Source of the DNA: Candidatus Diapherotrites archaeon CG10_big_fil_rev_8_21_14_0_10_31_34 | GTDB lineage: Archaea; Iainarchaeota; Iainarchaeia; Iainarchaeales; 1-14-0-10-31-34 | Assembly: GCA_002763225.1 (NCBI GenBank) | Contig: PFAI01000008.1 | Span: 1 to 17,608, forward strand | DNA length: 17,608 nucleotides | Direction: 5' to 3' | Shown here: one piece after another, positions 6,001 through 12,000 of the stretch | How the letters are laid out: every line of letters begins with the position of its first letter | Position numbering within the stretch: the stretch's first letter is position 1 | Made by a program: the position numbers

Positions 6001-9000
6001 AATGCTTTGCCAAAATCTCTTGTTTTCTCTAATTCTGTTCTTGCATTTCTTATTTCTTCTTCTTCTAATTCGTTTGTTGCAGTTAAATAAATCATTACTC
6101 CTTTTTCCGGGTTTCCTTTAACAAATTCTTTTCCAACTAAATGGCTTACTTTTCTTATTCCTCCAAATCTTTGTTCCCCAAAATAGTTTGCTATTCCTTT
6201 ATCTATTTCTTTAAAACATTCTTTAATTCTTTTTTCTGTTTCTTTTTTGTCTAATTCAATCTGTCTTACAGTTATTTCAAATTTGTTTCCTTTTAGCATT
6301 CCAATTCTTAGTCTTTCTTTTTTCCATTCAGGATTAGATAATTTAACAAATTTGCTTTTAAACTCAGCTACTCTTTCTGTTTCTGGCTTGAAAAAACAGA
6401 TTTTTTGGGAAGTAATTGCTCTTTTGTCTTTTACTCCTGCATAAGTAATTCTTTTTTTTGATATTCTGTTGTATCTTGCAAGCCTTCTGATTGCTTCATT
6501 TACATCTAAATTAAATTTCTGCATTTCCAAATACAAGTACTTGCATTCTTTTTCGTTTTCCGGAATAATTAATTTATCTTGTCTTTCAAGGCATTCTTCA
6601 TCGAGCCATAAATCACAGTCTTTTCCTTCTTCGCTTACTTCAATTACTTTAAAGTCTTTAATTCGTTCTTTTATTCTTCCGCCTATTCCTTTTGTTTTAG
6701 TTGAATAAAATTCGTTCATATTTAATCAGTTATTTGTATCTTAAAAAGGCTCCGATTCCTCCAAAGCCTTTAAAAAATTGTTCGCCTTCGCTTGTTTCAG
6801 TTGAAATAATTTTGATTGATGCTCCGCCTTCTTTTGCTTTTTCTTCCATGAATTCAGCGTACTCTAATTCTTCTAATTCCTCTATTTTAGTTGACTTGCA
6901 TTTACTGCATTTAAGTTTTGGTTTGCTTTCGTCCTTTATAATAAGTTCTTCAATACTATTGCATGAAATGCACTTAAATTTTATTGCAGTCCATTCAATT
7001 CCTTCTGAAAGCAATACTGTTTCTGCTTTTCCTATTTTTAGTGCTTCAATTACTTCATTTTCTCCGTAAGCTACTAAACCATCTTTAACTATTTCTTCCA
7101 AAAACCTGTTCATCAATCCTCGTTCTTTCATTAAAGCCGTGTCTCTTAACAATTCCTCTGATTTTTGAATCATTTCTCTTATTCCTGATTCATCTGTATA
7201 AGAAGTGTCTAAAACCCCAATTATTTTTTCTTTTAAACGGTAATCTAATGCTTCTTTTTCTAAAAACCTGTTTTTTGTTATTCCTGGTCCTCCAACAATT
7301 ACTCCTTTTAAGTTTTCTCCGTATTCTTCAAAAGTCTTGTTTATTTTTTCGCTTGTTCTTTTAAAAAAGTCTTGAGCAGCTTCTTCTCTTAATCTTTCAA
7401 ACCTGTGAGAACTATTATGGACTATTAACCCGTTTGCAATGAAATTCTGGTTTAATACACTAATATCAACTAAACCAGTTTTTTTATTTGATTTAATTAT
7501 TTTATTGATTTTTGCAGGAATCAAAGGAATTTCCATCAATTTTTTTAATTTTGTTTTCAATTTTTTGTTTTTGACGTAACCAAGAATAGATTCATTAAAC
7601 ACTTTTTTGCTCATTTGTCGTTCATTCCTGAAAAAACTGTTTACTTTTGGGAACAACTCCAAATTATATCCCTGTTCTTCAATTATTTTTCTGATTTTTT
7701 TTCCTGAAACAATTATCTGCCTTACATTGCTTCTAATGTGTTTTCGGTTTTTAATTAGTGCCATTATTTTTTCCTGCTTTTTCTTTAAGCTAAACCCAAT
7801 TAACTTTGAAAATAATTTTAGTGATTCATTATCAGATATGTCAACTGTAAACCTTGGGTTATCTGAATAAGGGTTTCTTTTGTTGTCATATTTATGCAAA
7901 GAAGCAATAATTCCAAACCTTAAAAGTGAAAGCCTTAATTGTTCAGCCATTTTTTTGTTGTTTATCCCTAATCCTATTCCTCTTTTGCTTGTTGCATATC
8001 CTTCTGCATCATAAAACCCTTTTATGAATGAAGCTAAAACATCATTTTCTGATTTTAATATTTTTAATGGGATTTCAGTGTTTCTTGCTTTTTTTATTTC
8101 AGAAAAGTTTTTTTCAATAAACTTAACAATTGACTTTCCATAAATTCTTATTTGATAGCAGCCTTTGTTTTCCCTGAATTTTATTGAACTATTAGCATTG
8201 AAAAAATCAGAAACTTTGTTTTTGTAGTGTTCTGCAAGTTCTTTATTTTGCTCTGAAAAACTTATTCTTTCTTTTTCAAAACTTCCGTCTCCGACAAAAT
8301 AACCAATTATTTTTGAGAGTTCTTTTGTTAATTTTTTTGGCATAACCAAATCAGAATTGGCTTTTGTTTGAGTTTTAATAAACTTCTCAAAGTCAATATT
8401 TAATTCTTTGCATAATTTTTTTATAAGGTTTTTTCTTACATCTCTTTTCCCTAATTCAATAACTGAAACTCCTGTTTGAGTTATTCCTGTTTTTTTTCCA
8501 AGTTTTTTCTGTGAAATCCCTGCTTTTTTTCTTGTATTAATTAAAACATTTTTCCCGTTTTCTGAAATATGATATGAGTTAAAGCAGTCAAATGATTCAA
8601 GGAATTGAGTTTTTCCTTTAATTTCAATTTTTTCAGGCATTAATAAGAATTCCCCGACTTTTAGTTCTTCTGCAGATTTTTCTTTAATTTCTTCTCCTGC
8701 AGTAAAAAACAAATGGTCTTTTGAAGAAACAATTTCTGTTCTTGGGTATTTTGTTATTATTTTGTAAACGCTTTTTTTTGTTTTCCATTTGTCTTTTATA
8801 TTTGAATCAGTAAAAACATTATTCTTAAAATCAAAGCTTTTTACCTGTAAAGGGTTATGAGACTCTTTTATTGGAATAATTGAGCCGTCATTTAACTGAA
8901 TTAGTGTTTCAGGAGAAAGGCATTGTCCTCCTGCCCTTGTTTTTCCTGCTACATTAGAAGTAAAATGTCCTACAACTTCATAGCTTTTTCCTTTTAATAT

Positions 9001-12000
9001 TGCTACTGTTGCTTCTCTTTTATCTAATACAATTAATGCATGCACTTCTTTTGTTTTCTGCATGTCTTCAACTGGATCTAAGTGAAAGCTTGAATCACAC
9101 CAATATAATTTTGTTTTTAATGGTTTGATTGGGTTTAAAGGAAACATTTTGATATCGCTTCTTCCTTCTGTTTCTGAAACATTTCCGCAAAATAATACTA
9201 AACCATTTTTTGGGATTTTGAAATTAATGTTTTTTAGAAAAGTGTCAAGCTTTCTTAATGCTCCCTGCACATTTTTTCTTGTCTGAGGACTCTTAATATT
9301 TGAGCTCTGGCTTAATTCTTCTGTTATTTGTCCCATTACTGAACTTCTGTCTGCATTTTCCGGAATGTATAAACTAATTAATTCAGTTCCTCTTCCTTTA
9401 AACTTTTTTAGTTTCTTTAATTTTTTTCTGAATATTTCTATTGAGTCATCTATTTCTGACATTTAAAATCACTTTATCAAATAAAATTAGTGTATTAATA
9501 TTTAAGAAAAAATATCTTTTTATACTTGTTCTATGTTGTTTTATAATATATGTTTGACATGTTTGAAAACTATAATCAAGAAGATGAAACTTCTTCGGTT
9601 TCTTTGGCTGTAAAGCCTGTTATAGTTGTTTCTGTTGGGGGCTCAGTTATTGCACAGGATAAATTAAATGCTACTTTAATGGCAAAATTTGCTAACTCGA
9701 TTAATGAGTTAAGAAAAGAAGGATTTGAGTTTATTTTGGTTGCAGGAGGAGGAAAAATTGCAAGAGATTATATTGCTACAGCTAAAACTCTTGGAATCCA
9801 AAACAATTTTGTGTTAGATGAAATTGCAATTACTGTAACAAGATTAAATGCATTGCTTTTAATTCAGGCTTTTGAAGATGCTTATCCGGATGTTTTAATT
9901 GATGTCAAAAGAATTCATGGAATTCTTGAATCAAAAAAAATCCCTGTTTTTGGGGGGTTAATCCCTGGTTTTACCACTGATACTGTTGCTGCAAGCATTG
10001 CAGAATACACTGGAGGCATTTTTATTAATCTTTCAAACCAGGATGGAATCTATAACGTTGACCCAAAATATTCAAAGACTGCTCATTTAATTCCTAAAAT
10101 GGATCACGAAAAACTAATGAGAGTACTAGCAAAAAAAGATTCAAGAAACCCAGGAGAAAACATGATTTTAGATGCATTTACCTGCATGATTTTAAACCGA
10201 AGCAAAATAACTACTTTTGTTTTGAATATGGAAGACTTAGTTAATTTTGAAAACGCAGTCAAAGGCCATGAATTCAAAGGAACAATAGTTGAATCAATTA
10301 GTGCTCTGGAAACAGAAATCTAGATTTATTCAACTTCTATAGTAGTTATCAAAATATTGTTTGATTCATTTGATTCTTCAATATTGTTTGTGGAATCTAT
10401 TACTACTTTTAATTCATGACTGCCTGAAGAAAGTTCATAAACATAAAACCAGTTTAGCCTGGAATCACTTTCTGCGGACGTAAAAGGACTTGGGCTTGTG
10501 CCCACTTTTTGTTCATCAACATAATAATCAATATTAAAAGGCACACAATAATCAATAGTAGGGGCTCGGTATAAATCAAATATTATCCATTTAAGGGAAT
10601 CTTGATATTTTAAATCTTCGCCATAAAGATCAACTAAAGGGCCAGTAAATTGTCTTTCAATAGTATTATTGTTTTCGTTAATTTCGCTAATTAAGTTTTC
10701 TGGATCAAGAATAACTTTAACTGTGTGTCCAATCAAATTTTTTTCATAGGGCTGTTGCATTATTATATTCATTGTTGTTTCTGGCGTGTGGTTTATGTAA
10801 TGGGAATAAAGTTTTTGTGAATCATAATAAACATCATAATTTACTTTATTGGTTTCAGTTGTGCCTGTTGAAGTTGTTGTAAATTCTAAACTATAATGGT
10901 TTCCAATACAAGTATCCTTAAAAGAAATTTCTCCGCCAATTATGTCTGTGGATTCTGTAGTAATTTCAGTGCATGAAATACTACAACAGTTTCCAGAATC
11001 AGATGTACTTAATAAGCTTCCATTGCAGGTTTTATTTGCTCCACAAATATATCCTGATTGTTCAGAACAAGTTTTTAGAATGCAATTTCCTTCAACACAT
11101 TTTTCGTTGGCTGAACAAGTGATTCCATAACAAGGATTTGATTGAGGGGTAATGCAAGTACTAGGGCAACAGCTAGAGGAATCTATTGCATCTAAAAGAG
11201 AAGAGCCACAAATCTGATCATTTGAACAAATATTTCCATTTAATTCAGCACAAGTTTTTTCTTGAATTACTTGAACACAGTTTCCAGAACAACATAAAAA
11301 AGAAGTTTTAGTGTTTGATGCAATAATCATCTCTCCTGAACAATAACTTGTTGATATATCGCATAATTTCCCTTTTTGTTCTTCACAAGTTAAACTGCTT
11401 TTTGAAATGCATTTTTCTGAACAACAGTTGTCTGAATCAGTTGCATTCAATAAAGACTTTTTACAAACATTGTTTTCCGAACAAGCAAATCCCCCTAAAT
11501 TAGAACAAATCCTTTTCAAGTCCTTTGCACAATCAGTGTCGGTTGTATAATTGCACCCCATAGGGCAATACTTGTCTTTGTTAAGACATTCAGTTTTCTT
11601 TAAGTGAACGCATTTATTGTCTGTTCCGTTGCAAAAATCATCTGTTGAAACATCTTTGTCGTCGCAATCTAATTCAGTTTTGCATTTATCTAAATCAACT
11701 GGAGTTTCATCTTTTGGTTCAAATTTATTTAAATCAGTTAAATTATTTGAATCATAGAATTTGAATCTTTTGATTCAGTGCAGCCAATTAACAGCAAACT
11801 AACAATAACTAGACTTGCAAGGATTATTTTTTTGTTCATCTATTAAACAAACATTTTTCTTATTAATAAAACTTTCTTTGAATTAAATTTTTTCTAATAC
11901 TTCAAATAATTCTTCCGGATTTAACACTGGTTTGTCATTTAAATTGTCTTCAATTATTCTTGGACAAGCAGTATTAACATAACAGTCAATGTTTATTCCC

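Follow-up and report, generated by a model that had tools for sequence, protein, structure and literature searches.

Structure of the aRF1 gene

The window analysed here, the 17,608-nucleotide contig PFAI01000008.1 of Candidatus Diapherotrites archaeon CG10_big_fil_rev_8_21_14_0_10_31_34, carries a gene for the release factor aRF1 (Table 1), with genes for TruD, an amino-acid kinase, Dph2 and PpsA as its neighbors. The window belongs to a fragmented metagenome bin of a small DPANN archaeon, in 65 contigs, whose size and completeness (1,044,951 b, 81.49%) are as an earlier note on this DNA had given them. The frame contains neither an internal stop nor a frameshift, and its 910-aa product scores 428.1 bits against the NCBIfam aRF1 equivalog TIGR03676 (cut-off 234.7). 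Pfam searches with this protein located the host domains eRF1_1 (13-134), eRF1_2 (683-774) and eRF1_3 (778-910) on both sides of a large insert, which matched Intein_splicing (204-683; 57 bits, cut-off 35.8), HTH_3 (PF01381, 311-360; 41.4 bits, cut-off 23) and LAGLIDADG_3 (best stretch 474-556). The translated N-extein also shows an Asn-Ile-Lys-Ser motif. A search of the organism's own assembly found no second aRF1, only a weak 367-aa paralogue on contig C24.

Table 1. Features of the intein-bearing aRF1 gene in the window.
Feature	Position	Strand	Description
aRF1 precursor gene	6730..9462	-	910 codons + stop; single unbroken ORF
N-extein, residues 1-180	8923..9462	-	eRF1_1 13-134; last codons GGQ at 8923-8931; intein-free orthologues match residues 1-181
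Intein, precursor residues 181-683	7414..8922	-	503 codons, Cys1 to His-Asn; from Pfam/NCBIfam matches and junction reading
HINT N-terminal part, intein residues 1-119	8566..8922	-	Cys1, Ser67-x-x-His70; strand pattern of the model; TIGR01445 covers 8701-8922
Cro/C1-type HTH_3 cassette, intein residues 121-185	8368..8562	-	PF01381; between HINT-N and endonuclease
LAGLIDADG endonuclease domain, intein residues 186-362	7837..8367	-	PF14528; motifs GYFVGDG and GFYDAEG
Helical accessory domain, intein residues 365-463	7534..7830	-	six helices in the model; between endonuclease and HINT-C
C-terminal intein segment	7414..7524	-	D486, H502, N503; TIGR01443 covers 7411-7452
C-extein, residues 684-910	6730..7413	-	eRF1_2, eRF1_3; +1 Ser codon 7411-7413 first; orthologues match residues 684-910

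The insert sits exactly between Gln180 of the GGQ motif (residues 178-180) and the Ser that follows it, the junctions reading RAGGQ/C181 at the N-terminal end and VHN683/S684-SHRFERLR at the C-terminal end. The alignment to the aRF1 profile splits at 174/174, and therefore no host residue was lost to the insert. GGQ/C was found in 119 and HN/S in all of the 120 homologues listed. The earlier note had placed the split directly behind Gly-Gly-Gln and an HTH_3 domain inside the insert, both of which stand, with Cys181 next to GGQ and His682-Asn683 in front of Ser684; the length of 480 aa that it gave has to be corrected to 503 aa. The GC content is 0.275 in the intein vs 0.316 in the exteins.

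The insert is built as a class-1 intein, with Cys as first residue, a Block B His, a terminal His-Asn followed by Ser at +1, a HINT fold and orthologues with empty sites. The Block B histidine motif of class-1 inteins is of the Thr-x-x-His type, and here it is Ser67-x-x-His70, with Ser where Thr is usual. In 117 aligned copies, which were picked by similarity to the query and are not an unbiased sample, the splicing residues C1, S67, H70, D486, H502 and N503 are kept throughout. PF14528 matched the intein in two stretches (72.9 bits), and both LAGLIDADG motifs are present, each with a metal-binding acidic residue: D212 is found in 116 and D305 in all of the 117 copies, and position 307 is acidic in 115. 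The HTH_3 cassette forms a discrete unit of 68 residues, with five helices in the model, and phmmer searches on PDB sequences matched it to HipB (8EZT) and C.BclI (2B5A). It is kept in 106 of the 117 copies and cleanly missing from 11, and its residues Arg131, Gln138, Ser153 and Glu156 are conserved in 105 of the 106 copies that bear it. Across the phylum, the cassette occurs once each in 33 of 215 genomes, 31 of these times in the aRF1 frame and never outside frames of aRF1 size.

In a Foldseek search, an AlphaFold2 model of the intein (pLDDT 94.2, pTM 0.92) had its best matches, all with probability 1.00, in five endonuclease inteins of solved structure: TliVMA (7QSS, E 1.2e-22), PI-PfuI (1DQ3, 6.6e-20), PI-TkoII, PhoVMA and PI-SceI. 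The endonuclease domain matched I-DmoI and I-Tsp061I as well.

Comparison with known inteins

The best fold matches are the VMA inteins of Thermococcus litoralis and Pyrococcus horikoshii (E 1.2e-22, TM 0.67/0.77), which likewise occupy a catalytic loop of a protein that is essential, although their host is V-ATPase subunit A and sequence identity is only 12-15%. TliVMA and PhoVMA (7QSS, 7QST; PMC8966425) are built like the aRF1 intein, from a HINT domain with a LAGLIDADG endonuclease nested in it and, ahead of HINT-C, an accessory domain, whose position in the solved structures described in that paper is the one that our helical domain has. According to the same paper, HINT-N of the VMA inteins is linked to the endonuclease by an unstructured loop of 28-32 residues; in the aRF1 intein, a folded HTH_3 of ~65 residues takes the place of that loop. 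The modular plan is also shared with the archaeal endonuclease inteins PI-PfuI (1DQ3), which of all solved structures is closest in sequence (phmmer E 3.1e-15), and PI-TkoII (2CW7), which also has an extra domain; however, they reside in ribonucleotide reductase and in DNA polymerase, and between their HINT-N and endonuclease Pfam recognises no Cro/C1 HTH.

With respect to the host, the closest parallels are the aIF2/IF2 and EF-2 inteins, which also interrupt conserved motifs of archaeal translation proteins. The aRF1 intein has its nearest paralogue, at 28% identity, in EF-2 of the same genome (HGK/C...HN/T). The searched parts of Novikova 2016 report 15 cases of aIF2 inteins and do not include release factors among intein hosts.

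Distribution and mobility of the aRF1 intein

Within the genus, the intein is present in three of six genomes: congeners G003 and G005 (96% complete) carry a 503-aa intein in aRF1, and in G001, G002 and G004 the DNA of the empty site was read, GGQ/S being continuous. In a set of 40 relatives, eight have an insert at the aRF1 site, 29 have none and three were unresolved; the 29 align with residues 1-181 and 684-910 in uninterrupted frames of ~370-460 aa. At the level of the phylum, at least 44 genomes have an aRF1 insert, among 201 with an aRF1 match (215 searched). Because the site is uninterrupted in congeners and the insert is present in at least 44 of the 215 genomes, we regard it as a mobile intein and not as a fixed feature. 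Homologues are numerous, with 420 protein matches at E<=1e-5 and, in contigs of one genome per species, 312 matching stretches, and copies without the HTH_3 cassette, as well as mini forms, occur at the same aRF1 site. The copies with and without the cassette amount to a natural experiment on the way in which homing endonucleases are steered by accessory DNA-binding domains.

Across 6786 pairs, extein and intein identities are poorly correlated (Pearson 0.53, Spearman 0.24), and discordant pairs exist in both directions (extein 0.68 vs intein 0.94, or 0.98 vs 0.69), as fits horizontal movement. Mean identities are 0.47 for the intein and 0.485 for the exteins. Contigs of other groundwater runs cross both junctions (X2 record 5, over 7369-9800; X6 records 11 and 15). 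No intein-free aRF1 allele was seen in the contigs of four groundwater runs, which says little either way, as contigs drop rare variants.

Interpretation of the insert

With the anatomy, conserved residues, fold, empty sites and patchy distribution described above, the product of the gene is very probably an aRF1 precursor that contains a canonical class-1 intein, for which we infer splicing, cleavage, homing and a role of the cassette. After translation, the HINT domain (Cys1, Ser67-x-x-His70, Asp486, His502-Asn503, Ser+1) would excise the intein, and Gln180 would be ligated to Ser684, restoring the GGQS loop in a release factor of 407 aa. The excised intein is predicted to act as a LAGLIDADG homing endonuclease that would cleave the GGQ-coding site of intein-free aRF1 alleles, repair of the cut allele from an occupied one copying the intein in. 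Both the HTH_3 cassette and the helical domain that follows the endonuclease most likely serve as accessory DNA-binding modules for the aRF1 target. The allele at this insertion site is real and, for the literature searched, new, and the element is of a well-known type, an ordinary selfish one in a genome unusually rich in inteins; it and its companions leave the understanding of how inteins work unchanged.

Fusion of unrelated DNA during assembly or binning could be suspected in a metagenome bin as fragmented as this one, with its 65 contigs, but the frame is continuous within a 17.6-kb contig with ordinary neighbors, and the same architecture is seen in 120 of 120 database proteins among the matches listed and in all 80 loci that were kept from separately assembled genomes; together with the contigs of other runs that span both junctions, this makes an artefact scarcely conceivable. 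Nearly as improbable is a decayed remnant that no longer splices, in which case aRF1 would be a pseudogene or would function with a permanent insertion of 503 aa. Splicing is deduced here from the sequence, and in an assembly that is 81% complete a second aRF1 could be missing; however, every splicing residue is intact in this copy and in all of its 117 relatives, the reading frame is undamaged, and intein-bearing frames also exist in near-complete relatives such as G005. Moreover, the GGQ loop must reach the peptidyl-transferase centre, so a permanent insert in it should be lethal.

On the other hand, the intein might be partly domesticated: the sole release factor would be inactive until spliced, so that the splicing rate could gate termination capacity, and the excised HTH_3 protein could be a DNA-binding regulator and not only a homing enzyme. 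The retention of the cassette with its four conserved residues, its confinement, within the phylum, to the aRF1 intein, the intein's conservation at about the level of the exteins and the lack of another aRF1 in the genome speak for such a role; indeed, the near-equal identities and the retained cassette amount to more conservation than a pure parasite needs and leave room for a role at the level of the host. Nevertheless, we consider domestication unlikely, as the allele is found in only half of the genus and is absent from most of the 40 relatives, the endonuclease active site is conserved, and cassette-less and mini forms exist naturally at the same site, all of which fits a selfish element. 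We are just as doubtful of a broader version, in which the conserved cassette would make the excised intein a sequence-specific DNA-binding regulator, the splicing rate would set termination capacity, and inteins would be denser in this DPANN order than in all other cellular genomes.

Other intein-bearing genes in the genome

Besides aRF1, 14 genes of the genome bear inteins of the same general kind, so that the earlier count of 13 rises to 15 in 1.04 Mb. The genes added encode a copper P-type ATPase (C13:31833-35606), whose intein covers residues 776-1139, and a second DUF87/HerA ATPase (C24:1768-4320), with its intein at residues 374-712; in both cases, orthologues in relatives that lack the intein align on either side of the insert. 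The inserts that had been reported in aRF1, the Fe-S scaffold IscU, a geranylgeranyl reductase and a PurD paralogue are indeed inteins, with intein junctions interrupting conserved host sites. In IscU, the junctions read GNPV/C...HN/CGD, the ligand Cys of Cys-Gly-Asp being the +1 nucleophile as previously described; the split of the reductase (RGY/C...HN/CWIFPKG) was likewise confirmed, and that of the PurD paralogue (GEMG/C...GN/T) now has a defined C-terminal junction, formerly unclear, from orthologues aligning at 1-244 and 590-791. Intein-free orthologues of aRF1, of the reductase and of the PurD paralogue align gap-free across the site, and IscU was judged by its junctions. Mycobacterium tuberculosis SufB, an Fe-S cluster assembly protein, also carries an intein. 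The IscU intein shares with it a host in Fe-S assembly, but the protein is a different one and the ligand Cys of IscU serves as +1 nucleophile.

The claim that these four hosts were not known to carry inteins holds for the full-text literature searched, where none of the four types is described, and for the supplementary data of Novikova 2016, so far as searched, which do not contain the alleles either; in public sequence data, however, the alleles are common. Copies of the aRF1, IscU and reductase alleles number tens to hundreds, the IscU allele being found in 344 proteins, the reductase allele in 47 of 62 matches and the PurD-paralogue intein in four of 40 relatives. Some aRF1 intein proteins bear the automatic JGI name 'eRF1/intein/homing endonuclease', and many copies are auto-named 'LAGLIDADG family homing endonuclease' or 'helix-turn-helix domain-containing protein'. 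Inserts of the aRF1 type break automatic annotation in this way and can distort marker-gene alignments. According to Novikova 2016, inteins are concentrated in replication and repair proteins, and the transcription/translation core 'contain few inteins'. The DPANN are under-surveyed for inteins, only two of their genomes being covered in a 2023 survey table. New targets reached by inteins are thereby the release-factor catalytic loop, the Fe-S ligand Cys of IscU, and three enzymes or transporters: a copper pump, a lipid reductase and the PurD paralogue.

Methanocaldococcus jannaschii, whose genome of about 1.7 Mb has some 19 inteins, is the classic intein-rich case. Like it, the present genome is small and archaeal, and its many inteins lie in genes for replication, repair and ATPases; it differs in having 15 intein genes in a 1.04-Mb, 81%-complete bin and in hosts that extend to aRF1, IscU, the lipid reductase, the PurD paralogue and the copper pump. 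This density is not special to the bin, several relatives having as many inteins or more: 16-30 Intein_splicing matches were found in nine of 41 genomes, the present one among the nine, and relatives have 13 to about 18 frames with intein matches in genomes of 1.0-1.5 Mb.

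The aRF1 gene is split directly behind its Gly-Gly-Gln motif

The aRF1 precursor is encoded by one 910-codon frame that scored 428 bits against the NCBIfam aRF1 equivalog (cut-off 234.7). The protein sequence at the junctions reads ...RAGGQ/CLSPETLI...GLIVHN/SSHRFERLR (slashes mark junctions here and below), with Gly-Gly-Gln at residues 178-180, Cys181 as the first intein residue, His682-Asn683 as the last two and Ser684 at +1. This confirms the split directly behind Gly-Gly-Gln and the HTH_3 domain inside the insert claimed in an earlier note, but gives the intein 503 residues instead of about 480; the predicted ligated product has 407. 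In a six-frame genome search the aRF1 profile matched on either side of the insert (positions 5-174 and 174-402), so the host sequence is complete, with zero residues lost, and the same search detected no other aRF1, its one further match being a weak paralogue of 367 aa on contig C24. The G+C content of the intein DNA (0.275) was somewhat below that of the exteins (0.316) and the genome (0.308).

Local misassembly of the insert was ruled out by contigs of other groundwater runs, which cross both junctions. No joint skipping 7414-8922 was found when window 6400-9800 was compared with contigs of four groundwater runs, a kind of sequence from which rare variants are dropped; joints from 7566 to 9404 and from 8020 to 9364 were treated as spurious, as their sides had only 20-24 letters.

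In an alignment of inteins cut from 117 full-length homologues, Cys1, Ser67, His70, Lys253, Asp305, Asp486, His502 and Asn503 (intein numbering) were invariant, Asp212 was present in 116 copies and residue 307 was acidic in 115, a set that takes in splicing residues and, for each LAGLIDADG motif, its acidic residues. An AlphaFold2 model of the intein (43 sequences; mean pLDDT 94.2, pTM 0.92) comprised five modules, and its top Foldseek matches were solved endonuclease inteins: TliVMA (7QSS, E 1.2e-22), PI-PfuI (1DQ3), PI-TkoII (2CW7), PhoVMA (7QST) and PI-SceI. The aRF1 insert is a genuine and putatively active homing intein; its insertion site is new, and the system is of a known kind.

Features of the window, the aRF1 precursor and its intein, and intein-related genes of the genome (C, contigs; L, loci)
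Feature	Location	Remark
850-aa frame	window 1-2553 (+)	open at contig start
aRF1 gene	window 6730-9462 (-)
aRF1 intein DNA	window 7414-8922
PEP synthase	window 12888-15284 (-)	798 aa
eRF1_1	precursor residues 13-134	Pfam
Intein_splicing	precursor residues 204-683	Pfam
HTH_3	precursor residues 311-360	Pfam
LAGLIDADG_3	precursor residues 474-556	Pfam; best of two stretches
eRF1_2	precursor residues 683-774	Pfam
eRF1_3	precursor residues 778-910	Pfam
HINT-N	intein residues 1-119	AlphaFold2 model
Five-helix domain (HTH_3)	intein residues 121-185	AlphaFold2 model
LAGLIDADG core	intein residues 186-362	AlphaFold2 model
Helical domain	intein residues 365-463	AlphaFold2 model
HINT-C	intein residues 467-503	AlphaFold2 model
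aRF1	C51	intein host
IscU	C22	intein host
Geranylgeranyl-reductase family enzyme	C52	intein host
PurD paralogue	C16	intein host
EF-2	C35	intein host
MCM	C15	intein host
PolD large subunit	C41	intein host
RtcB	C60	intein host
HerA-like ATPases (two)	C25, C55	intein hosts, split in P-loop
T2SSE/VirB11-type ATPases (three)	C3, C28, C52	intein hosts; N-terminal junctions approximate
Copper P-type ATPase	C13:31833-35606 (L011:13-3789)	EGR/C...HN/CVGAVGDGINDAP
DUF87/HerA ATPase	C24:1768-4320 (L014:4-2559)	HQF/C...GN/C
Free-standing LAGLIDADG_3 ORFs (five; L015-L019)	C47:17393-18220, C60:402-1364, C9:20213-21199, C53:3247-4221, C42:793-1926	no HINT domain

The intein carries an HTH_3 cassette

According to passages of Beyer et al. 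(2022, PMC8966425), endonuclease inteins combine HINT and endonuclease domains with a variable accessory domain between endonuclease and HINT-C, and in VMA inteins an unstructured loop of 28-32 residues connects HINT-N to the endonuclease. The aRF1 intein likewise has a helical domain at the usual accessory position, whereas in place of the loop described there it has a Pfam-recognisable Cro/C1 HTH, whose sequence (intein residues 121-185) resembles HipB and the controller protein C.BclI. Because 11 of the 117 copies lack exactly 68 residues (from 110/114 to 177/181) and are collinear elsewhere, the HTH is a discrete cassette. A cassette-only search of the phylum matched 33 of 215 genomes, with a single occurrence in each; 31 occurrences lie inside aRF1 frames already matched in the phylum-wide aRF1 search, and the other two (genomes G089, contig C81, and G108, contig C95) mark candidate further occupied aRF1 frames. 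A Pfam scan of the intein-bearing frames found the cassette in none of the genome's other inteins. The cassette probably serves as an accessory module that binds DNA at the aRF1 homing site. It is a small architectural twist and, with the lineage-wide high intein load, the part most deserving further study.

Distribution and mobility of the aRF1 intein

Among 40 relatives, eight carry an insert at the aRF1 site, 29 have an uninterrupted gene (aligning with precursor residues 1-181 and 684-910) and three were ambiguous. Within the genus, G003 and G005 have a 503-aa intein of 81-82% identity, and in G001, G002 and G004 the site is empty, the DNA being continuous through GGQ/S. Across the phylum, aRF1 was matched in 201 of 215 genomes, at least 44 of them well into the intein; some frames had only 561-571 aa, which suggest mini forms of the intein. 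In a contig collection with one genome per species, 393 pattern matches included 312 that code for a relative, the best 80 of the 312 being of full or nearly full length with 41-82% identity. The records of these bear the labels Iainarchaeum, Woesearchaeota, Nanoarchaeota, Aenigmatarchaeota and Nanohaloarchaea, the few other labels reflecting apparent mis-binning. The protein database yielded 420 proteins at E<=1e-5; all 120 of those listed combine eRF1, intein and LAGLIDADG families, and 119 of the 120 read GGQ/C.

Similarity between exteins agreed only loosely with similarity between inteins (Pearson 0.53, Spearman 0.24; 6786 pairs, the sample having been chosen for its resemblance to the query). 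Pairs disagreed in either direction, as expected from repeated homing between lineages. Occupied alleles within the genus read S-x-H from the +1 residue and empty ones S-x-V or S-x-L; extein adaptation at +3 gave no signal, since Q, K, V, H and A are common to 23 empty and 120 occupied alleles.

Fifteen intein-bearing genes in one genome

Six-frame searches with Intein_splicing, LAGLIDADG_3 and intein N-terminal profiles, together with Pfam frame scans and alignment against intein-free orthologues, gave 15 intein-bearing genes; the 13 counted previously lacked the copper P-type ATPase and the DUF87/HerA ATPase on C24. The 15 inteins total 6080 residues and take up 1.75% of the assembly. As they share at most 28% identity in all-against-all BLAST, except for the same-site pair of HerA-like ATPase inteins (48%), there is no sign of recent jumps to new hosts inside the genome. 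No additional intein-bearing gene was found by tblastn with the 15 inteins or by TIGR01445, TIGR01443 and Hint_2 profile searches, the sole extra match being the free-standing LAGLIDADG ORF on C9, which shares 26% identity with the endonuclease portion of the aRF1 intein. The five free-standing ORFs encode 249-346 aa.

The PurD-paralogue insert has no Pfam intein match, with junctions GEMG/C...GN/T; orthologues aligning with residues 1-244 and 590-791 bracket it, which upholds the intein proposed earlier and settles its C-terminal junction. It occurs in 4 of 40 relatives and shares 24-25% identity with the C24 and reductase inteins. Intein-free orthologues from 20 relatives flank the C24 insert (339 aa, weak Pfam intein scores), which is 25% identical to the PurD-paralogue intein; both terminate in Gly-Asn, not His-Asn. 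In the copper ATPase (domains YHS, HMA, E1-E2_ATPase and Hydrolase), a 364-aa LAGLIDADG intein lies immediately upstream of the GDGINDAP motif. Neither the reductase intein nor the copper-ATPase intein was found in any of 40 relatives searched, nor the C24 intein in any of 20. Compared with the nearest intein-free orthologue, the +1 Cys replaces Val in the reductase, Lys in the copper ATPase and Ile in C24, whereas in aRF1 and IscU the +1 residue is native and functionally critical. The claim that a ligand Cys of IscU serves as +1 nucleophile agrees with this, and with HN/CGD in all 120 listed of the 344 IscU-intein proteins in the database. Orthologues of the C24 ATPase in G008 (C9), G019 (C27) and G015 (C6) are split elsewhere, at about query residue 171-176, an indication that this host has a second insertion site.

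The high intein load is not peculiar to this bin: at E<=1e-6 this genome has 16 Intein_splicing matches and eight relatives have 18-30 each, with 0-5 in most of the other genomes, two congeners with 1 and 3 among them. Five intein-rich genomes had about 13-18 intein frames each, counted by eye. Several frames of relatives hold two or three Intein_splicing match sets (G039:C12, 2317 aa; G033:C10 and C48; G006:C1, 1572 and 1638 aa), which points to multi-intein genes.

Novelty of the hosts

The earlier description of hosts not known for inteins held in part. For aRF1/eRF1, IscU and geranylgeranyl reductase, no published account of an intein came up in full-text literature searches; the names of the three were absent from two of the three supplement files of Novikova 2016, where the controls RtcB and elongation factor were found, and the main text of the Anaeramoeba paper gave no match. 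Sections of Novikova 2016 describe inteins as few in core components of translation and transcription, and a 2023 survey table holds only two DPANN genomes. The alleles are nevertheless plentiful in public sequences: intein-bearing proteins made up 47 of 62 matches for the reductase, and some aRF1 copies carry the automatic JGI label 'eRF1/intein/homing endonuclease'.

Other genes of the window

The neighbours of aRF1 encode TruD, an amino-acid-kinase family protein, a CARDB surface protein and Dph2. PEP synthase, a classical intein host in Methanocaldococcus, is intein-free here. The 850-aa frame at the contig start matched no Pfam family and has a G+C content of 0.38-0.41, clearly above the approximately 0.28-0.31 downstream; its nearest ESM Atlas neighbours, archaeal S-layer-like clusters (score 0.92, 194 shared features), offer a lead.
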